From NCBI GenBank assembly GCA_036741715.1, contig DAINRR010000006.1:11106-75105 (forward strand): a DNA stretch of 64,000 nucleotides, written 5' to 3'. The translations under genes and the position numbers were made by a program. This DNA is from Gemmatimonadales bacterium (GTDB taxonomy: Bacteria; Gemmatimonadota; Gemmatimonadetes; Gemmatimonadales; GWC2-71-9). The notes beneath the pieces are model-generated. The model was not told the origin of the DNA. It worked only from the letters and a program-made list of their open reading frames with translations, and did no database searches. Of this stretch, positions 661-64,000 are shown one piece after another. Each line of letters opens with the position of its first letter. Position 1 is the stretch's first letter.

Positions 661-3537
<2,877 letters not shown>

Positions 3538-3716
3538 AGCCCCGAAAGGTACCCGAAGCGGGCGGGTTCGCTCAAGGGTCAGGGGCGGGCGGTGTGCGAG
3601 AGAGGGATCGGGTTGGGGAGGACTGGGCACACGAAAACACGAAATGACGAATGGGGGCGGTGGCGGGCAGGGTCCCGATCGATGCTCGGGCATCGCGGTC
3701 GGCTCGGGGTTGCGCT

Positions 3717-3960
3717 GATCGCGAAAGTGCGAAAACGCGAAAGGAACTTCAAAAGCAAGAAATGCCTCCGCTCGAGGCACGGGCCCGGCTCGTCCGGCAG
3801 AGTCTGAAGCGGTTGTCTGTGGGCTCCCTGCACGCCCGGCTCATGGAGCCCGCGGGGAAGCCCACAAACCCCAGACGCTTCTATCCCACTACGGATTCGG
3901 AGCCGGCACGCAAACAGAACCTTTCGCGGTTTTCGCTGTTCTTTCGCGCTTTCGCGATTC
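3717..3960. repeat. Imperfect inverted repeat built from CGCGAAAG units (arms 3717-3747 and 3917-3960) flanking a GC-rich hairpin (3818-3866)
   Basis: Left arm is gatcgcgaaagtgcgaaaacgcgaaaggaac. The reverse complement of the right arm is gaatcgcgaaagcgcgaaagaacagcgaaaaccgcgaaaggttc. The 8-mer CGCGAAAG occurs 2x forward and 3x reverse. Central stem tgtgggctccctgc / gcggggaagcccaca. Confidence 0.5.
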
Positions 3961-49614: not shown

Positions 49615-50775
49615 ATGTTCTCACCCAATTCCCATCCCTGGTCGGCCGACGAGACCCTCGGCCGGCATCTGGAGCGGCGGGGCGTTTCCCGGCGCGAGTT
49701 CCTCGAATTCTGCGGCGGGCTCTGCGCGATGCTCGGGCTCGGCAGCAGCTTCGTTCCCCGCATGGCGCACGCGCTCCAGACGATGAAGCGCCCGAGCGTC
49801 ATCTGGCTCCAGCTGCAGGAATGTACCGGCTGCGTGGAGAGCGTGATCCGTACGTCGGAGCCGACCATCGGCAACCTCCTCCTCGACCTCATCTCCCTCG
49901 ACTATCAGCACACACTCATGGCGGCCGCTGGGCACCAGGCCGAGGGGGCGCTGCAGGCGGCCATGAAGGAAAACGCGGGCAAGTACCTGCTCGTGGTGAC
50001 CGGCTCGGTTCCGCTCGCGGAGAACGGGATCTACCTCACGATCGGGGGCCGCACGGCGAAGACGATCCTCGAAGAGGCCGCCGTCGGGGCGGCCGGCGTC
50101 ATCGCGGTCGGCGCCTGCGCCCACTGGGGCAGCGTGCAGGCGGCGCGACCGAACCCGACCGGGGCCGTCGGCGTCGGCGACATCGTCAAGGACAAGCCGG
50201 TGGTGAACATCGCGGGGTGCCCGCCGATTTCCGATGTCGTCACCGCCACCATCGTCCACTACCTGACCATGGGCCGGATGCCCGCCACCGACGGCGACGG
50301 GCGTCCCACCTTCGCCTATGGCTCACGGATTCACGACCAGTGCTCCCGGCGCGCCAACTTCGACGCCGGTCAGTTCGTGACGAGCTTCGACGACGAGGCC
50401 GCCCGCAACGGATGGTGCCTCTATACCGTCGGCTGCAAGGGCCCGTCGACGTTCTCACCCTGTCCGATCTTCCAGTGGAACAGCGGGACCAGCTGGCCGA
50501 TCGGCGCGGGGCATCCCTGCATCGGCTGCACCGAGCGTCAGTTCTGGGATACGATGACGCCGTTCTATCACCGACTGCCCGACGTCGCCGGCTTCGGGGT
50601 CGAACGGACAGCCGACCTCATCGGCGCGGCCCTCGCCGCTGGTGCCACGGCTGGCGTCGCGGCCCATGCCGCCGCGACTGCGATCCATCAGTCCCGGCGC
50701 CGGCCGCTGCCGGTCATCGATGCACCACCCGTGCGATCCGATCCGCCGGCCCCGCCAACGACTGGAAAGGAGTGA
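49615..50775 (+). CDS. hyaA: [NiFe]-hydrogenase small subunit (Tat-exported, membrane-anchored)
   Basis: ORF 49201..50775 trimmed to ATG 49615. Twin-arginine signal RRGVSRREFLEF. FeS ligand motifs LQECTGCVES, GACAHWGSVQAARPNPTGA, GCPP, HDQCSRR, CLYTVGCKGP and CIGC. C-terminal hydrophobic anchor LIGAALAAGATAGVAAHAAATAI. Confidence 0.95.
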   Translation: MFSPNSHPWSADETLGRHLERRGVSRREFLEFCGGLCAMLGLGSSFVPRMAHALQTMKRPSVIWLQLQECTGCVESVIRTSEPTIGNLLLDLISLDYQHTLMAAAGHQAEGALQAAMKENAGKYLLVVTGSVPLAENGIYLTIGGRTAKTILEEAAVGAAGVIAVGACAHWGSVQAARPNPTGAVGVGDIVKDKPVVNIAGCPPISDVVTATIVHYLTMGRMPATDGDGRPTFAYGSRIHDQCSRRANFDAGQFVTSFDDEAARNGWCLYTVGCKGPSTFSPCPIFQWNSGTSWPIGAGHPCIGCTERQFWDTMTPFYHRLPDVAGFGVERTADLIGAALAAGATAGVAAHAAATAIHQSRRRPLPVIDAPPVRSDPPAPPTTGKE

Positions 50776-50779
50776 CGCG

Positions 50780-52491
<1,712 letters not shown>

Positions 52492-52495
<4 letters not shown>

Positions 52496-53211
52496 GCACC
52501 ACGACCGCGCCGGTCGAGCATCTCCCGCGCACCGGCAACTACCGGTGGGTCCAGCTTTGGGGCGTGCCGCTCCGGGTCATGCACTGGGCCGCCGCGATCG
52601 CGATCGTCCTGCTCGTCGTGACCGGGCTGTACATCGGCAGGCCGTACTTCATGACGAGCGGGGAGGCCAGCTCCCACTTCCTGATGGGATGGATGCGGCT
52701 CCTGCATTTCATCGCGGCCGGCACCCTCGTCATGACGGCGATCGTCCGGATCTACTGGCTCGTCGCCGGGAACCGGTACGAGCGGTGGAGCGCGCTCATC
52801 CCCTGGCACCCGCGCGACATCCGGAACCTCTTCCGGCAGGCACGCGCGTACCTGCTCGTCCGCCCGGAGGACGCGCCACCGTACCTCGGCCACAATCCGC
52901 TCCAGCAGCTCAGCTATACGTCCCTGTATGCGGTGGCACTGATACAGGTGATCACCGGATTCGCGCTGTATGGGCAGTACGATTCGTCGAGCATCTTCTT
53001 CCGCCTCCTCAACTGGATCGGCCCGATGCTCGGCGGGATGCCGAACGTCCGCTTCCTGCATCACGTGCTCACGTGGGTGTTCGTGATCTACATCCCGATC
53101 CATGTGTACATGTCGATCCGCGCCGACGTGCTCGATCGCAACAGCACCATTTCGTCGATCGTGACCGGGGGTCGCATGGTACGCGCCGACGAGGAGTTCG
53201 AGGATGACTGA
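52492..53211 (+). CDS. hyaC: Ni/Fe-hydrogenase b-type cytochrome subunit
   Basis: C-terminal 239 aa of ORF 51592..53211. ATGA overlap with the large-subunit stop. 4 TM helices with conserved His (RVMHWAAAIAIV, RLLHFIAAG, LGHNPLQQ, VRFLHHVLTWVFVIYIPIHVY). Confidence 0.9.
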
Positions 53212-53713
53212 CGTGCGCACGGGAACCTTCGTGATCGGTCTCGGCAACCCGCTGATGCTGGACGACGGTATCGGCCTCGCGGCGCTCGAGCGGCTCTCCT
53301 GCCGGCCCGACATCCCGGAAGGCATCCAGCTCGTCGATGGGGGCACCTGGGGGATGAACCTCCTCCCGCTCATCGAAACCGCCGGCACCGTGATCTTCCT
53401 CGACGCCATCCGGCTCGGGTGCGAGGCCGGCACGATCCACGAGCTCGAGGGCGACGCCGTTCCGCGGCGCCTCGCCCACAAGCTCTCGCCCCATCAGATC
53501 GACCTCGGCGAAGTACTCGCGATCGCCATGCTGCGCGGGACGCTCCCTACGCGGCTCCTCGCGCTGGGCATCGAGCCAGCTGAAGTCGAGATGGGAACGG
53601 GGCTCAGCCCCGCGGTCGAGGCGGCCATGCCGGAGCTCCTCGCGCGGGTCGTGAGGCGGATCGAGCACTTCGCGGCGGGCGACTTGGAGGGCGTGCCGGC
53701 TTGCACGAGCTGA
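53204..53713 (+). CDS. hyaD: Hydrogenase maturation endopeptidase
   Basis: 169-aa ORF with VIGLGNPLMLDDGIGL, FLDA and SPHQ motifs. Overlaps the cytochrome b stop by 8 nt. Confidence 0.9.
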   Translation: MTDVRTGTFVIGLGNPLMLDDGIGLAALERLSCRPDIPEGIQLVDGGTWGMNLLPLIETAGTVIFLDAIRLGCEAGTIHELEGDAVPRRLAHKLSPHQIDLGEVLAIAMLRGTLPTRLLALGIEPAEVEMGTGLSPAVEAAMPELLARVVRRIEHFAAGDLEGVPACTS

Positions 53714-53961
53714 GCCTCGCGCTCGAGGTCTGCCGCATCGCGGAAGCCCGCCTCGACGGCGCGGAGGCCCGCAGGCTGCGGCGCGTCGGCATCGAGGTCG
53801 GCGAGGACGCCAATATCGAGGTCGCCAACTTCGAGTTCTGCCTCGAGGCGCTGCTGGGCGCGCCGCCCTTCGGCGCGGCGACGCCCATCGTTACCCGCTG
53901 CCCGGGCGAGGATCTCCGGCTCGCATTCATGGAGGTGGACGATGACGGTCCGGACGATTGA
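53701..53961 (+). CDS. hypA: HypA-like nickel metallochaperone lacking the zinc-finger module
   Basis: 86-aa ORF with a TTG start. The N-terminal MHELSLA is the Ni-binding MHE motif and the C-terminus is EDLRLAFMEVDD. It has no CxxC pairs, only 3 isolated Cys. Confidence 0.7.
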   Translation: MHELSLALEVCRIAEARLDGAEARRLRRVGIEVGEDANIEVANFEFCLEALLGAPPFGAATPIVTRCPGEDLRLAFMEVDDDGPDD

Positions 53962-54613
53962 CGTGCGCGAGCGGGTCATGGCGAAGAACGACGAGATCGC
54001 CGCCGAGGTGCGTCGACGTCTCGCCGCTGCCGGTGTGCCGGCGCTCAACCTCGTTTCGTCGCCCGGCTCGGGAAAGACCACCCTCCTCGAGCGCACCCTG
54101 GATACCCTCGGGCGCGAGCTCAGGATCAGCGTCGTGACCGGTGACGTCCAGACGCAGAACGACGCCGACCGGCTCGCTGCGCGCACGACCCGGCTCGTCC
54201 AGGCGGTCGTCACCGGAGGCGCCTGCCACCTCGACGCGCGACAGGTGCAGGAAGCGCTCGACGCGCTCGACCTCGACGACACCGACCTTCTCTTCATCGA
54301 GAACGTCGGCAACCTCGTCTGCCCGGCGGGGTGGGACCTCGGGGAAAGCGCCAAGGTCGTTCTCTTCTCGGTCACCGAGGGCGAGGACAAGCCGCTCAAG
54401 TATCCCGCCATGTTCCGCAACTCGACGACGGCCGTGCTCACGAAGATCGACCTCCTGCCGCACGTTCCGTTCGATGTCGAGCGCGCCGTCGCAGCCGCTC
54501 GGAGCGTCAATCCGGGCCTCGAGTTCTTCTTCGTCTCGGCGCTCACGGGCGAGGGGATGGAGGCGTGGTTCGACTTTCTCCGGTCCCGCGCACGGATGGT
54601 CACGGCGTCGTGA
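53942..54613 (+). CDS. hypB: Hydrogenase nickel-incorporation GTPase HypB
   Basis: 223-aa ORF with P-loop SSPGSGKTTLL, GGACHLDA, ENVGNLVCP and TKIDLL. Confidence 0.95.
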   Translation: MTVRTIDVRERVMAKNDEIAAEVRRRLAAAGVPALNLVSSPGSGKTTLLERTLDTLGRELRISVVTGDVQTQNDADRLAARTTRLVQAVVTGGACHLDARQVQEALDALDLDDTDLLFIENVGNLVCPAGWDLGESAKVVLFSVTEGEDKPLKYPAMFRNSTTAVLTKIDLLPHVPFDVERAVAAARSVNPGLEFFFVSALTGEGMEAWFDFLRSRARMVTAS

Positions 54614-56919
54614 CCGCCTCCGCCGCAGCACCGGCCGCACGGCGGATCCGGGTGACGGGCGTCGTCCAGGGGGTGGGGTTTCGCCCCTTCGTCCATCGCC
54701 TCGCCGTTCGGCACGGGCTTGGCGGATGGGTGAGGAATGCCGGTGGGGAGGTCGAGATCACGGTCGCAGGCGCGGAATCCGCCATCACCGCGTTCATCGG
54801 TGCGATCGAGCTGGAGGCGCCGCCACTCGCGCGGATCGAAACGGTTCACGTCGAGCCGTCGATGGATGCGCCGGCGGATGGTTTCGCCATCGTGCCGAGC
54901 CGGGACCCCGCGGGGATGCGGGAGCCGGTCTCGCCCGATGTGGCGCTCTGCGCGGCGTGCGAGGCGGAGCTGTTCGACCCGGCCGACAGGCGGTTCCGCT
55001 ACCCCTTCATTACTTGCACCGACTGCGGACCGCGCTTCACGGTGATCGAGGCCATGCCGTACGACCGCGTCCGCACGAGCATGCGCGCCTTTGCGCAGTG
55101 CCCCGCCTGCGAACGGGAATATGCGTCACCCTCCGACCGGCGCTTCCACTCCGAGACCAACAGCTGCCCTGCCTGCGGGCCGAGGCTCTGGCTCGAGCGG
55201 GGGGACCAGGTCGTCGATGGTTCGGCGCATGCGCTGGAGTCCGCCGCAGGCCTTCTCCGCGAGGGAGCCATCGTGGCCCTGCGCGGGCTCGGAGGCTTCC
55301 ATCTGGCCGTCGATGCCACGTCGGACCGAGCGGTAGTTCGCCTTCGCTCGCGCAAGCGGCGGGATGCGAAGCCGCTGGCGGTGATGGTGCAGAGCGTGTC
55401 CCACGCCGCCGAGCTGGTCGAGCTGACTGATGAGGCGAGTGCGCTGCTCCAGTCCCCGGTGCGCCCGATCGTGATCCTGCCCGAACGCGAGGCAAGTCCG
55501 GTCAGCCGGTTCATTGCGCCCGGGATCGGGTCCGTCGGCGTTATGCTGCCATCCACCCCGCTGCATCATCTGCTGCTCGACCTCGTGTGCCACCCCCTCG
55601 TCATGACGAGCGGGAACCTGAGTGACGAGCCCATCGCGACCGGCAACGCAGAGGCGCGCGCGCGGCTCGCCGGAATCGCGGACGCCTTCCTCCTGCACGA
55701 CCGCGAGATCGTTTCCCGATACGACGACTCGGTGATCCGGCCGGTGCGGCAGGGCCGCGTCATCATCCGGCGCGCCCGGGGCCTCGCCCCGCTTCCGCTC
55801 CGCCTGCCGCTCGCGAGCCCGGTGCCACTCGTCGCGGTCGGGGCGGATCTCAAGAACACCTTCACGGTGGTAGACGGCTCCCGCGCCTATGTGAGCCAGC
55901 ACATCGGCGACCTCGACAGCCTGGAAACAGTCACGCATTTCAGGGAGACGCTCGCCCGGTTCGAATCGCTCTTCCGGATCGCGCCGTCCGCGGCAGCGCG
56001 GGACCTGCACCCTGGATATCTCTCGACGCGCCTCGCCGAGGAGCTCGGGCTGTCGCCGGTCATCGGCGTGCAGCACCATCATGCGCACATCGCCGCAGTG
56101 CTGGCCGAGCATGGTGAGCGGGATGCCGTCGTCGGCCTGGCATTCGACGGCACCGGCTACGGCGACGACGGAAACGTCTGGGGCGCGGAGGTGCTGCTCG
56201 CCGACCTGCACGGCTACCGGCGACTGGCGCAGCTGCGCTACGCCCCGATGCCCGGCGGCGACCTCGCCGCCCGCGAGCCCTGGCGTGCCGCGCTCGGCTA
56301 CCTCTCGCTCGAGCCGGATCGTGCCCGCGCCTTCGAGGGGGCGTTCGAAAAAGTACCGCCGCGTGAGCTCGCGATGGCGCGTGCCCAGCTGGACCGCCGC
56401 CTCAATGCGCCGCTCGCTTCGTCCCTCGGCCGCCTCTTCGACGCGGCGGCCGCGGTGATCGGTGTCCATCACGGGGGGCAGTTCGAGGGGCAGGCTGCGA
56501 TGGAGCTCGAGGCGCTCGCCGGCAATCTCGCGGGGATTGCGCGCGAAGTGCCGATCGACGACGCGGGCGCCGTCTGGCAGATGGACCCGCTGCCGCTGCT
56601 CGGTGAATTGGGCGAGCGCCAGAGGTCGGGCGCGGATCGAGCCGACCTCGCCGCGGATTTCCATGCGAGCCTCATCGCGGCCACCGTGCGACTGGCGACG
56701 GCGAGCTGCGAGCGGTGCGGAATCGGCACGGTGGCCCTCGGCGGCGGCGTCTTCCAGAATGCACGGTTCGCCACGCAGATCCCTGCGGCCCTCGAAGCTC
56801 GCGGAATGCGGGTGCTCCTTCCGCGCGAGCTTGGGCCGAACGATGGCGCCGTGAGCTATGGTCAGGCGGCAGTCGCGGCAGCGCGGCTGGCGGGCACCAG
56901 CGCTTCCTTCTCGAACTGA
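54610..56919 (+). CDS. hypF: Carbamoyltransferase HypF
   Basis: ORF 54331..56919 trimmed to GTG 54610 (GTGA overlap). Acylphosphatase domain VTGVVQGVGFRPFV. Two zinc fingers, CAACEAE...CTDCGPRF and CPACERE...CPACGPRL. YrdC-like GLGGFHLAVDA and a Kae1-like C-terminus. Confidence 0.95.
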   Translation: MTASAAAPAARRIRVTGVVQGVGFRPFVHRLAVRHGLGGWVRNAGGEVEITVAGAESAITAFIGAIELEAPPLARIETVHVEPSMDAPADGFAIVPSRDPAGMREPVSPDVALCAACEAELFDPADRRFRYPFITCTDCGPRFTVIEAMPYDRVRTSMRAFAQCPACEREYASPSDRRFHSETNSCPACGPRLWLERGDQVVDGSAHALESAAGLLREGAIVALRGLGGFHLAVDATSDRAVVRLRSRKRRDAKPLAVMVQSVSHAAELVELTDEASALLQSPVRPIVILPEREASPVSRFIAPGIGSVGVMLPSTPLHHLLLDLVCHPLVMTSGNLSDEPIATGNAEARARLAGIADAFLLHDREIVSRYDDSVIRPVRQGRVIIRRARGLAPLPLRLPLASPVPLVAVGADLKNTFTVVDGSRAYVSQHIGDLDSLETVTHFRETLARFESLFRIAPSAAARDLHPGYLSTRLAEELGLSPVIGVQHHHAHIAAVLAEHGERDAVVGLAFDGTGYGDDGNVWGAEVLLADLHGYRRLAQLRYAPMPGGDLAAREPWRAALGYLSLEPDRARAFEGAFEKVPPRELAMARAQLDRRLNAPLASSLGRLFDAAAAVIGVHHGGQFEGQAAMELEALAGNLAGIAREVPIDDAGAVWQMDPLPLLGELGERQRSGADRADLAADFHASLIAATVRLATASCERCGIGTVALGGGVFQNARFATQIPAALEARGMRVLLPRELGPNDGAVSYGQAAVAAARLAGTSASFSN

Positions 56920-56929
56920 GGACCTTCCC

Positions 56930-57229
56930 ATGTGCCTTGGCATTCCCGGACGAGTCGTCGAGGTGCACGACGACCGCGGACTCGCGATGGGCGTCGTGGA
57001 CTTCGGCGGCGTACGCCGCGAGGTCTGTCTCGCCTATATCGCGGATCAGGTGCAGCCCGGCGACTACGCGCTGGTGCACGTCGGCTTCGCCATCTCGCGC
57101 ATCGACGAGGCGGAGGCGCGGCGCACGTTCGAGGCGCTCCGGGAGATGAGCCAGCTGGACGAGCTCGACTGGCTGCGTGAAGTTGCGGATCAGGAGCTCG
57201 TGGAGCTGGAGCAGCGAGCGGCACCATGA
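56930..57229 (+). CDS. hypC: Hydrogenase assembly chaperone HypC
   Basis: ORF 56858..57229 trimmed to [12 protein letters not shown], the invariant N-terminal Cys motif. Confidence 0.9.
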
Positions 57230-58338
57230 GATACCTCGACGAGTACCGGGACGGCACCATCGCCCGCTCCCTCGCGGCGCAGATCCGGCGCACCGCGACG
57301 CGCCGGTGGGTGCTGATGGAAGTCTGCGGCGGGCAGACCCACACGATCGTCAAGCAGGGACTCGACGAGCTCCTCGGCGATGCCGTCGAGATGATTCACG
57401 GCCCCGGCTGTCCCGTGTGCGTCACGCCGCTCGAGCAGATCGACAAGGCGCTCGAGCTCGCGGCGCGTCCCGAGGTGATCTTCACCTCGTTCGGGGACAT
57501 GCTCCGCGTTCCGGGGAGCGAGTGCGACCTCCTGCAGGTGCGCGCACGCGGTGGCACCGTGCGCATCGTCTACTCGCCGCTCGACGCCCTCGAGCTCGCC
57601 GTGCGGAACCCCGACCGCGAGGTCGTCTTCTTCGCCGTCGGGTTCGAGACCACCGCCCCCGCGAATGCCATGGCCGTCTGGCGCGCACGCCAGCTCGGGA
57701 TCCGCAACTTCAGCGTCCTCGTCTCCCACGTGACCGTGCCCCCGGCCATGGTGGCGCTCCTGAGCGACCCGGCCAACCGCGTCCAGGCGTTCCTTGCCGC
57801 CGGGCATGTCTGCACCGTGATGGGGTGGAGCGAGTACGAGCCGATCGCGGCAGGATTCCGGGTGCCGATCATCGTCACGGGCTTCGAGCCGCTCGACATC
57901 CTCGAAGGGATTCACCTCGCGGTCCGCCAGCTCGAGGAGGGCCGCCACGAGGTCGAGAACCAGTATGCGCGCGCCGTGACCCGGGAGGGCACGGTTCCCG
58001 CTCGAACGCTCGTCGAGGAGGTCTTCGAGCTGGCGGACCGGAAATGGCGCGGGATCGGCGAGATTCCGGCCAGCGGCCTCGCCCTGCGGGCGGAGTTCGC
58101 AGCATTCGACGCCGAGCGGCGCTTTTCCCTTGCGACGACGTCGGTGCCGGAGCCGGTTGAGTGCCGGGCCGGCGCCGTGCTGCGTGGCCAGCTCAGGCCG
58201 CACCAGTGTCCCGCCTTCGGCCGGAGCTGTACGCCCGAGCACCCGCTCGGCGCGCCGATGGTCTCGTCCGAAGGTGCGTGCGCTGCCTATTACAACTACG
58301 GGAGGTTCCGCGCGTCGGAGCCGTTGGAGGTCACATGA
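57226..58338 (+). CDS. hypD: Hydrogenase formation protein HypD
   Basis: 370-aa ORF with ATGA overlap. Motifs [18 protein letters not shown] and FETTAP. Confidence 0.95.
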
Positions 58339-59399
58339 CCACGACCGTGCGACTGGCCGGTGGCGTCGCCTGCCCGGCGCCCGCGATCCCGACCGAGCGC
58401 GTGCAGCTGGGCCACGGATCGGGAGGAAAGCTGAGCGCGGCCCTCGTGCGAGAGCGCTTTCTTCCGCAGCTCTCGAATCCCGCGCTCCGGCAGCTGGGAG
58501 ACGCCGCCATCCTGCAGGTGTTCGATGGCGACATCGCGATGTCGACCGACACCTTCGTCGTGAGCCCGATCGAGTTTCCCGGCGGCAACATCGGCTCGCT
58601 CGCGGTGCACGGCACGCTGAACGACATCGCGATGATGGGCGCGGAGCCGAGGTTCCTCTCGGCGGGCTTCGTGATCGAGGAGGGATTCGAGCTCGAGGTG
58701 CTCGATCGCGTGGTCGCCGCGATGGCCGGCGCAGCGCGTGCCGCCGGTGTCCCGCTGGTCACCGGAGACACCAAGGTCGTCGAGCGGGGCAAGGCGGACC
58801 GGATCTACATCAACACGACGGGCATCGGAACGCTGGAGGGAACCTGCCGGCCCGCACCCGATCGCGCCGCAGGCGGCGACGCGGTCATCGTGAGCGGGGA
58901 GATCGGCCGGCACGGCATGGCGATCATGTCGGCGCGCGAGGGTCTCGGCTTCGAGACGGAGATCGAGAGCGACTCGGCAGCGCTCTATCCGCTGGTCGCG
59001 CGGCTGGCCGGACGGTTCGGTACGCACGTCCACGTGCTGCGGGATCCCACCCGCGGCGGGGTCGCGAGTGCGCTCAACGAGATCGCGGCCGCCTCGAAAC
59101 GCGGCGTCGTGCTCGACGAGGAATCGCTGCCGGTTCCGGGGCCCGTCGGAGCCGCCTGCGCCGTCCTGGGCCTCGACCCGCTCTATGTGGCCAACGAGGG
59201 GATCATGGTGGTGATGCTTCCGGACCGGTTCGCGGACGATGCCGTCGCAGCGCTCCGGGCGCTGCCGCTCGGCGCGCACGCCCGCCGCATCGGGCGCGTG
59301 GTGGACGACCATCCGGGCATGGTCGTGATGCGGACGGCCATGGGCGGCACCCGCGTCGTGGACATGCTGCCGGGCGACCAGCTCCCCCGCATCTGCTGA
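58335..59399 (+). CDS. hypE: Hydrogenase expression/formation protein HypE
   Basis: ORF 58161..59399 trimmed to ATG 58335 (ATGA overlap). AIR-synthase-like fold motifs GHGSGG and DPTRGG. C-terminal PRIC. Confidence 0.95.
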
Positions 59400-59469: not shown

Positions 59470-60009
59470 ATGGCGTTGCAGCGTGGCATCTACATCGTGC
59501 CGACCGACCGGTGGTACATCGAGCGCACCGTGTGGCTCATCGCAGGGTGCGTCCTGCTCGGTGCCACTGCGCTGGCGCTCCTGGCCGATCCACGCTGGGT
59601 GCTTCTCGTCATTGCGACTGCGCTCGCCTCGATTGCCGTTTCGCTGACGGGATTCTGCCTGGTCGGCAATGCGCTCCATCGCGCCGGGCTCGAGCCGATG
59701 CTGGGCCGGCCCTCGACGACGAGACCGCGCTGGTACTTCATGCAGACGGACAGCTGGTACCTGGAGCGCCGCATCTACCTCGCCGTCGGCATCAATCTCA
59801 CGATCGCGTCGATGCTGTCGCTCGTGCACAGCCCATGGTGGCTGGCCTTCACGGGTTTCGTCGGAGCCGCGATGGTCTGGTTCGCCGCGACTGGATTCTG
59901 CATCATGGCCAACGGCCTGTACTGGCTGGGCGCAGAGCCGCGACTCGCGCCAGGCTGTGCTCCCGCCGACGCGCCCGCGGCGACTCCCACGGGGACATCG
60001 GCTGCGTAA
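59470..60009 (+). CDS. Tandem YgaP-like (DUF2892) transmembrane domain protein
   Basis: 179-aa ORF with two homologous halves, each ending in a T-G-F-C motif: WYIERTVWLIAG...SLTGFCLVGNALHRAGLEP and WYLERRIYLAVG...AATGFCIMANGLYWLGAEP. Confidence 0.7.
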   Translation: MALQRGIYIVPTDRWYIERTVWLIAGCVLLGATALALLADPRWVLLVIATALASIAVSLTGFCLVGNALHRAGLEPMLGRPSTTRPRWYFMQTDSWYLERRIYLAVGINLTIASMLSLVHSPWWLAFTGFVGAAMVWFAATGFCIMANGLYWLGAEPRLAPGCAPADAPAATPTGTSAA

Positions 60010-62513: not shown

Positions 62514-64000
62514 TCATGCTCGCGAATCTTCGAGCAGCTCGGCCAGCGCCGCCACGCCGTCCTGAATCATCCGTGGGGGACTTCCGGCGTAGTGAATGAG
62601 AAGGCCGGAAGACGCCGGCGAACCTGCGTAGTACCGGGAGAGCGCGGGCAGGTCGAGACGCGCGCGCGCCGCGCGCGCCGAGAGTGCCCGGTCGTCCCGG
62701 GCGTCACCGAGGTGAGCGGCGACGTGGAGCCCGGTGTCCGCCGGACCGAGCGTGATCGCACCGCCGAGACGTGCGCGCGCGGCGTCGAGCAGCGCCGCAC
62801 GGCGTTCGCGGAACAGGTCACGCAGCTTGCGCAGATGACCTGCGAACTGTCCGCTGTCCATGAACTCGGCGACCGCCGCCTGCAGGAAGGTCGGAGGCCC
62901 GCCGCCGGTGACGTCCTGGGCCGAAGCGAAGGCATCGAGCAGTCCCGTGGGCAATACCAGGTATGCGAGACGGATGGAGGGGAAAAGGACCTTGCCGAAC
63001 GTGCCCGCATAGATCACACGTCCCGCCGGATCGAGCCCCTGGATCGAGGCGAGCGGTCGGCCGATGTAGCGGAACTCGCTGTCGTAATCGTCCTCGATGA
63101 TCCAGGCGTCCCGCCGCTCGGCCCACTCGAGGAGCGACGCGCGACGCTCCAGGCTCAGCGTAAAACCGAGGGGGTATTGGTGCGACGGCGTCACGTAGGC
63201 CAGGCGGGCCCGCGGAGCGAGCCGCTCCCCGGCCTGGACATCGAGACCCTCCGCGTCCACGGGCACGGGCACGATGCGCGCATTGCCCGCCGCGAATGCG
63301 GTCCGCGCGCCGGGATACCCCGGCTCCTCGAGCCAGACGGCATCGCCCGGATCGAGAAGCAACCGGGTGAGGAGCGTGATCCCCTGCTGTACGCTGGCGA
63401 GCACCTGAACCTGGGTCCAGTCGCAGCGGACACCGCGGGAGGAGACGAGATAGGTCGCGATCGCTTCACGCAGCGCTCGGTAGCCCGCCGGGTCGGGCGG
63501 CAGCGCCTCGACTCCCGACCAGCGGCGGCTTCGCCTCGCCAGGATCTGACGCCATGGCTCCACCGGGATGGTCGCGGGGTCCGGAACGCACGGCGCGAAC
63601 GTGAAGCCGGCCGTCGAGGCAATGAGATGGTTCGCGCCCAGGACCTCGCGTCCGCGCTCCGACAGCGCCTCCCGCCCGCGCGGGGGCGGAGCAGTCGCCG
63701 GGCCGCGGTGCCCGGAGCGCAACGTTCGTGGCGTGCGCAAGGCTCGCGCAAGGCTCGGAGAAACCTGGGTCCCCCTGCCCACCGCCCGCACGATGAAGCC
63801 CTCGGCGCGGAGCTGGTCGAGCGCCGACTCCACCGTGTTTCGCGAAACCTGCAGATCCTCGGCCAGCGTACGGCTCGCCGGCAGGCGGTGGCCCGGAGGC
63901 AGTGCCCCACTCACGATGCCGTCGCGCAGATGCCGGTAGAGTCTGAGGTACTTCGGGGCGTCGCCCGTGTGTCGCAGACCGTCAGGGATCTGAACCAGAG
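62514..64000 (-). CDS. MocR/PdxR-type regulator: GntR wHTH fused to PLP-dependent aminotransferase-like domain (5' end at or beyond window end)
   Basis: The frame stays open to position 64000 (...GDAPKYLRLYRHLRDGIVSGALPPGHRLPASRTLAEDLQVSRNTVESALDQLRAEGFI). The aminotransferase-like body carries YVTPSHQYPLG, AWIIEDDYDSEF and YAGTFGKVLFPSIRLAYLV. Confidence 0.85.
   Translation of the reverse strand, partial: LVQIPDGLRHTGDAPKYLRLYRHLRDGIVSGALPPGHRLPASRTLAEDLQVSRNTVESALDQLRAEGFIVRAVGRGTQVSPSLARALRTPRTLRSGHRGPATAPPPRGREALSERGREVLGANHLIASTAGFTFAPCVPDPATIPVEPWRQILARRSRRWSGVEALPPDPAGYRALREAIATYLVSSRGVRCDWTQVQVLASVQQGITLLTRLLLDPGDAVWLEEPGYPGARTAFAAGNARIVPVPVDAEGLDVQAGERLAPRARLAYVTPSHQYPLGFTLSLERRASLLEWAERRDAWIIEDDYDSEFRYIGRPLASIQGLDPAGRVIYAGTFGKVLFPSIRLAYLVLPTGLLDAFASAQDVTGGGPPTFLQAAVAEFMDSGQFAGHLRKLRDLFRERRAALLDAARARLGGAITLGPADTGLHVAAHLGDARDDRALSARAARARLDLPALSRYYAGSPASSGLLIHYAGSPPRMIQDGVAALAELLEDSRA

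Follow-up and report, generated by a model that had tools for sequence, protein, structure and literature searches.

In the HypA proteins described to date, the N-terminal MHE motif is the known nickel site, and a 2019 review attributes a zinc site to every HypA (PMC7055735); a 2025 review describes HypA likewise, with a zinc site (PMC12134894). In H. pylori HypA, single Cys substitutions in the zinc site lower hydrogenase activity, and in the HypA-HypB complex of T. kodakarensis the nanomolar nickel site uses His98 (PMC7055735). Since the H. pylori zinc-site Cys mutants lose hydrogenase activity, there is at least one canonical HypA for which the zinc domain matters. The role of this domain is still debated, and structural, regulatory, or pH/nickel-sensing functions have been proposed. 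No description of a zinc-less HypA was found in the full-text literature searched, a body of work outside which most subscription journals lie.

Here we analyzed a short hypA-like ORF in the window, which is the whole stretch of 64,000 nucleotides from a Gemmatimonadales bacterium. The best explanation, to which we assign a probability of ca. 0.7, is that this ORF represents the hypA gene in a group-1 [NiFe] uptake-hydrogenase operon of ten genes, and that its zinc ribbon was removed in frame and exchanged for a four-residue beta-turn, leaving the nickel domain with its MHE motif. All ten genes lie on the forward strand (+). The genes encoding the small subunit of the [NiFe] hydrogenase (49615..50775; Pfam NiFe_hyd_SSU_C and Oxidored_q6; twin-arginine signal RRGVSRREFLEF), the large subunit of a group 1 membrane-bound uptake [NiFe] hydrogenase (50780..52495; Pfam NiFeSe_Hases, 778 bits), a HyaC/HupC-like b-type cytochrome (52492..53211; Pfam Ni_hydr_CYTB, 102 bits), and a HycI/HyaD-type maturation endopeptidase (53204..53713; Pfam HycI, E 4.9e-24) precede the short hypA (53701..53961), whose start is overlapped by the protease stop. 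Downstream are hypB (53942..54613), hypF (54610..56919; Pfam acylphosphatase, zf-HYPF, Sua5, and HypF_C; its GTG start overlaps the hypB stop), hypC (56930..57229; starting with MCLGIPG; Pfam HupF_HypC), hypD (57226..58338; Pfam HypD, 503 bits), and hypE (58335..59399; Pfam AIRS and AIRS_C). The best PDB relatives of the large subunit are 3myr and E. coli/Salmonella Hyd-1/Hyd-5, and the protein ends, after ...CGVH, with a 15-residue extension, VIDATGAPIVEVKIQ, that is predicted to be cleavable. The mechanically called ORF of the small subunit opens at TTG 49201, and its true start is likely ATG 49615 (MFSPNSHPW...), just before RRGVSRREFLEF. Directly 3' of hypE is an ORF with a YgaP-like transmembrane domain (59470-60009, +). 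The window also carries a regulator with GntR and aminotransferase domains according to Pfam (62514-63914, -), which we take to be MocR-like.

The short hypA encodes 86 aa (MHELSLALEVCRIAEARLDGAEARRLRRVGIEVGEDANIEVANFEFCLEALLGAPPFGAATPIVTRCPGEDLRLAFMEVDDDGPDD), corresponding to a nickel-binding domain without a zinc ribbon, and its TTG is the earliest usable start past the in-frame stop located 5' of it. The first three codons, TTG-CAC-GAG (53701..53709, +), specify Met1-His2-Glu3, the N-terminal motif that is nickel-binding by homology. The protein contains three Cys residues (11, 47, and 67) and no CxxC pair, and the two-CxxC structural zinc site is absent from the ORF. The position, TTG start, length, MHE beginning, and lack of CxxC given in the original prediction were all reproduced from the sequence, as were the overlaps of 13 nt with the protease gene, which ends at 53713, and 20 nt with hypB, whose ATG is at 53942. 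A GGAGG Shine-Dalgarno-like site (53686..53690, +) lies 10 nt 5' of the TTG; however, such a purine-rich site is present in only 32 of 81 hypA genes (80 loci described below plus the window), and the site is thus weakly supported. When aligned to the Pfam HypA profile PF01155, the short HypA scored 33.1 bits (E 6e-8) and passed the gathering cut-off of 28.9, covering only the N-terminal half of the profile (positions 1-54 of 112). Its score for NCBIfam TIGR00100 was 28.4, below the equivalog cut-off of 88.1, and none of the NCBIfam models captured it, every cut-off being missed.

To locate what is missing, we aligned the short forms to 54 zinc-containing HypAs and, separately, to the nearest family of full-length HypAs. 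Collinearity between short and full-length forms runs from residue 1 through the strand '..I.R.P' and resumes at 'G.dL.v..lEv', the strand that closes the nickel domain. Between these two strands, the 33 alignment columns that hold both CxxC pairs are absent from the short forms, a clean excision with a four-residue turn in its place. In the window, this turn is Pro68-Gly69-Glu70-Asp71 (53902..53913, +), which replaces the canonical CxxC...CxxC zinc ribbon of ca. 30 residues; Gly69 is nearly invariant in the family. The C-terminal strand, which had been said to be kept, aligns to the final strand of canonical HypA.

We also built an AlphaFold2 model on the family alignment. The model has a mean pLDDT of 91.3 and a pTM of 0.80, and consists of a helix (residues 3-17), a strand (26-34), a second helix (41-52), and two further strands (61-67 and 72-79) that the Pro68-Gly69-Glu70-Asp71 turn (pLDDT 94-96) joins as a hairpin. 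In a Foldseek comparison with the PDB, the top 14 matches were all HypA (3a43, 6g81, 5yxy, 5aun, 3a44, 5yy0, 5aup, and 2kdx), with a best query-normalised TM-score of 0.81 and a probability of 1.00 for the best matches. A single-sequence phmmer search of the PDB with the short HypA gave no match, and a profile search gave weak N-terminal HypA matches only (E 0.02-0.1); therefore, the fold was settled by the structural comparison. Based on the 33-column excision and on a model that matches HypA chains only, the short HypA is predicted to be a stand-alone HypA nickel-binding domain with the alpha/beta fold. The claim that this protein is a HypA homologue without its entire zinc-finger domain is upheld by the 33-column gap and the HypA-only PDB matches, and the predicted structure has the fold of the HypA nickel domain.

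To examine how widespread this form is, we sought relatives among 5.8 billion protein clusters and obtained 426 close relatives of the short HypA. Among the best 120 of these 426, 100 are exactly 86 aa long and nearly all are 85-86 aa; two CxxC motifs occur in none of them, and the protein starts with MHE or VHE in 114. These numbers put the resemblance far beyond chance. A scan of one genome per species detected a relative of the short HypA in 213 genomes, and the best 80 of these 213 were inspected at the level of the locus. Almost all of the best 80 are Gemmatimonadales/Gemmatimonadaceae MAGs obtained in many independent studies, and three, on contigs of 3.1-6.0 kb, were binned under other phyla. 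All carriers of the short hypA are uncultured MAGs. The ORF is intact in 80 of 80 loci and is exactly 86 aa long in 67 of them, as in the window. The start codon (ATG in 62 loci, GTG in 18, and TTG in the window alone) always abuts His2, and neither the 115 closest family members nor any of the 80 loci depart from M/V-H-E. The invariant or nearly invariant residues are M1, H2, E3, S5, A7, E9, C11, G34, F46, C47, L48, P55, P56, F57, G69, L72, and D81. The median pairwise dN/dS (Nei-Gojobori) was 0.32, with values of 0.12-0.13 against the two nearest relatives, and the alignments show identical deletion boundaries across the short clade of Gemmatimonadales.

These data bear on whether the short ORF arose from a deletion during sequencing or assembly, or is a pseudogene in decay, in either case limited to the contig of the window. 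The unusual TTG start, unique to the window, and a length 26 residues below that of the 112-aa canonical HypA of Gemmatimonadota would be in keeping with such an origin. However, the 86-aa form recurs in assemblies that were made independently, by many studies and on many sequencing platforms, none of the 80 ORFs is disrupted, dN/dS is ca. 0.3, and the deletion boundaries are uniform throughout the clade. A contig-specific deletion or pseudogene is ruled out by this recurrence, the integrity of the ORFs, and dN/dS, and we give it next to no probability. The short hypA is a real conserved gene, and a large group of Gemmatimonadales carries it as the standard form. Its original description as a maintained gene and not a remnant agrees with the family-wide conservation, purifying selection, the fixed position in the operon, and the confidently modelled nickel-domain fold.

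The gene order SSU-LSU-cyt b-protease-hypA-hypB-hypF-hypC-hypD-hypE was found in the window and in 80 of 80 loci, as far as the contigs extend. The protease stop and the hypA start overlap by 8 or 13 nt in 74 of the 80 loci, and of the 79 loci with a locatable hypB, 53 have a hypA stop that overlaps the first candidate start of hypB by 20 or 23 nt. Because the genes abut or overlap, the operon has no room for an unrecognised extra gene. No separately encoded zinc ribbon was found in the 64-kb window or within 10 kb in the 80 loci. A split HypA was also considered and rejected: C..C-x(8-25)-C..C motifs in the window are confined to HypF, a UvrA-like ORF, and one noise ORF. A 1059-aa ORF at 664-3840 (-) contains two C..C-x(19-21)-C..C motifs and presumably resembles UvrA.

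Cys11 (53731-53733), Cys47 (53839-53841), and Pro55-Pro56-Phe57 (53863-53871) are invariant in the 115 closest members, and neither Cys11 nor the PPF motif was seen among the canonical HypAs aligned. It is conceivable that these residues build a new metal or redox site in place of the zinc site, and their invariance together with the novelty of Cys11 speaks for it. In contrast, more distant short representatives carry Gly11/Ser47, Ala11, or Trp47, which weakens Cys11 and Cys47 as a substitute metal site. Furthermore, helices 1 and 2 carry positions 11 and 47 on their hydrophobic faces, and canonical HypA has Ile/Leu/Val and Cys/Ala there, which makes them look like core residues. We regard a replacement site as highly improbable; Cys11, Cys47, and PPF may be core packing residues.

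HypB of the window (223 aa) scored 260.5 bits with TIGR00073 (cut-off 121.2) and missed the PRK10463 cut-off (266.8 vs 385). It has the P-loop GSGKT at residues 42-46 and the G-domain metal site Cys95/His96/Cys127; CxxC is absent throughout, and there are only two His residues. In 71 loci, the N-terminus of HypB reads M-[A/T]-V-R-T-I-[D/E]-V-R-E-R-V, in which Met, Ile, Arg, and Glu never vary and Val, Leu, or Ile occupies the second hydrophobic position. The conservation of this N-terminus across the 71 loci identifies the upstream ATG, at 53942, as the true start of hypB. Ile6 and Val8 align with Leu78 and Val80 of E. coli HypB, residue 4 corresponding to position 76 of PRK10463. Leu78 and Val80 in E. 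coli HypB and Tyr4 and Leu6 in A. fulgidus HypB are needed for binding to HypA (PMC3287977). Because Ile6 and Val8 match the docking residues of E. coli HypB, the contact between HypA and HypB is very probably retained, judging from the alignment. The original prediction had also cited the lack of the N-terminal CxxCGC motif in this HypB as a sign of different nickel delivery. The motif is indeed missing; however, this high-affinity site has been described as a feature of E. coli HypB alone (PMC7055735), and HypB without an N-terminal metal domain is a recognised common type (PMC13202556), so its absence adds nothing to that argument.

At the hypA/hypB overlap (53942..53961, +), the bases that specify the hypB start M-T-V-R-T-I-D also encode, in a different frame, the C-terminal DDGPDD of HypA. 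The hypA of full-length relatives ends with '...LEVE-TGA' and its stop lies 3-5 nt before the hypB ATG (junctions of loci L081, L083, and L086). In the short clade, this TGA stop has been lost and hypA runs into the conserved hypB start in the other frame. The conserved acidic six-residue tail was considered as a functional motif and rejected, since it is the N-terminal coding region of hypB in another frame.

Among full-length HypAs, P0171 (112 aa, two CxxC) comes nearest to the short-family profile, and its family (P0171/P0296/P0318 family) likewise has its named members in Gemmatimonadota. This family shares 37-41% identity overall with the short HypA and 44% over the first 52 residues, and it keeps both CxxC pairs, whereas the short HypA has neither. 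Its hypA precedes a gene for a HypB of 222-223 aa that is 60% identical to HypB of the window, and it ends before hypB with no overlap, unlike the short hypA. In these genomes, hypA-hypB-hypF form a separate unit with hypC-hypD-hypE on the other strand, whereas the short hypA adjoins the protease gene; the SSU-LSU-cyt b-protease operon stops right after the protease, with no short hypA there. Between the window and one locus with full-length HypA, identity is 62% for the large subunit, 60% for HypB, 50% for the small subunit, and 44% for the first 52 residues of HypA. Among zinc-containing HypAs, the family closest to the short form comes from the same phylum and works for a homologous hydrogenase, so the zinc ribbon was probably lost within Gemmatimonadota, as far as can be read from the sequences. 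The simplest reading is that the loss took place in the lineage where the hyp genes joined the end of the structural operon.

Some differences in neighboring genes were also observed. In some genomes, a ZIP transporter gene (PF02535) lies directly 5' of the full-length hypA (L084 9094-9834, L085 9094-9834, and L086 1582-2322). No ZIP gene lies directly 5' of the short hypA, the upstream neighbor of which is the protease gene in every locus. A protein of ca. 940 aa in which multihaem cytochrome c motifs are joined to a Ni_hydr_CYTB domain (L081 16150-18972, -; L086 13900-16725, -) is encoded next to hyp or hydrogenase genes in genomes with full-length HypA.

The existence of a 112-aa HypA within Gemmatimonadota leaves room for the short HypA to be a redundant or specialised paralogue, with nickel insertion falling to a full-length HypA from another place in these genomes; hydrogenase-specific HypA paralogues are known in other bacteria (PMC12134894). 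However, the short gene fills the hypA slot of the sole hyp set within 10 kb in every locus, and genomes with the full-length form have no short form beside the hydrogenase. No second HypA-like ORF was found in the 64-kb window or within 10 kb in the 80 loci. Additionally, three complete or nearly complete chromosomes with the short form (3,326,502, 3,209,449, and 4,104,346 bp), the proteins of which belong to the collection searched, yielded no full-length HypA of the Gemmatimonadota type, a search that a divergent copy would escape. We therefore consider a paralogue of this kind quite improbable, and the preferred reading remains that the short gene is the hypA of its operon.

Outside the Gemmatimonadales clade, about two dozen other zinc-less HypA representatives of 77-91 aa with the same deletion boundaries were found (P0168-P0269). 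They are rare, with one to five sequences each in the ten 90%-identity clusters checked, all metagenomic. Two of them, P0170 and P0256, pass the Pfam HypA cut-off, as does the short HypA. P0256 (L088 3072-3314) is encoded directly 5' of a gene for a 222-aa HypB, with two ABC permease genes and a DUF6390 gene nearby. The nearest relatives of these sporadic forms (e.g., P0170, P0256, and P0262) are mostly zinc-containing HypAs, with up to 62% identity, so they look like independent losses. It seems from these relationships that the zinc domain was lost more than once and that its absence became the norm for a large group in Gemmatimonadales alone.

If the short HypA acts as its homologues do, HypB would bind nickel at Cys95-His96-Cys127 of its G domain, and its N-terminal Ile6-x-Val8 segment would dock onto the nickel domain of HypA. 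After GTP hydrolysis, nickel would pass to the site formed by the N-terminal amine and His2 of HypA, which would hand it to the large-subunit precursor already holding Fe(CN)2CO. The adjacent protease would then cut after ...CGVH, taking off the C-terminal 15 residues VIDATGAPIVEVKIQ. We infer each of these biochemical steps, as well as the dispensability of the zinc domain for them, from homologues. The residues and partners needed are conserved while the zinc domain is not, which suggests that this domain is unnecessary for making [NiFe] hydrogenase. In the complex structures from T. kodakarensis, it is reportedly the nickel domain through which HypA contacts both HypB and the large subunit, which would fit such dispensability.

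In contrast, a simple equivalence of the short HypA to canonical HypA is doubtful because of the H. pylori Cys mutants and the nanomolar site using His98. Judged by family conservation, the short family has no conserved His besides His2, and no His98-type residue was seen. It is possible, although we think it unlikely, that the short HypA cannot form the HypB-induced high-affinity nickel site as in T. kodakarensis, that the hand-over is arranged differently, and that the zinc domain of canonical HypA is a regulatory add-on. If so, HypB or the large subunit might complete the site in trans, or low-affinity MHE alone might relay the nickel. A further alternative is that the short HypA no longer carries nickel: it would recruit HypB to the large subunit, as an adaptor only, or nickel would be inserted independently of HypA. 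Such a role would agree with the loss of the zinc domain and of the His98-type ligand, and in laboratory strains high nickel in the medium can bypass HypA and HypB (PMC12134894). However, Met1-His2-Glu3 shows no variation at all, and His follows the start codon directly in every case; since these features are hard to explain otherwise, the metal site of the N-terminal amine and His2 is probably in use. We consider a HypA that carries no nickel improbable and retain the view of a nickel domain acting within the hydrogenase operon.

A clean natural deletion that keeps MHE, the HypB motifs, and the full operon provides a ready-made experiment on the need for the zinc domain in nickel insertion. 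Moreover, the short HypA is a minimal candidate nickel chaperone of 86 residues for structural and transfer studies. There is also an annotation issue: JGI records label the short HypAs 'Zn finger protein HypA/HybF' despite the lack of a zinc finger, and no NCBIfam model covers the family.

In comparison with known systems, HypB of the window has no notable difference from the type found in H. pylori, M. jannaschii, A. fulgidus, and M. maripaludis, which is likewise without an N-terminal metal domain and has the same aliphatic-x-aliphatic HypA-docking motif at the N-terminus; in M. jannaschii HypB, the Cys-His...Cys of the metal site is at the identical positions 95, 96, and 127. The short HypA shares the N-terminal MHE with canonical HypA/HybF (E. 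coli; H. pylori, 6G81 and 2KDX; T. kodakarensis, 3A43, 5AUN, and 5YXY), and its model has the same alpha/beta fold as the canonical nickel domain (Foldseek TMq 0.65-0.81, probability 1.00). The canonical gene is likewise located directly 5' of hypB in the hyp cluster. In contrast, canonical HypA has a CxxC-x(12-13)-CxxC zinc ribbon of ca. 30 residues where the short HypA has a four-residue turn, and the short HypA, unlike the canonical protein, ends in a six-residue acidic tail that results from reading into hypB.
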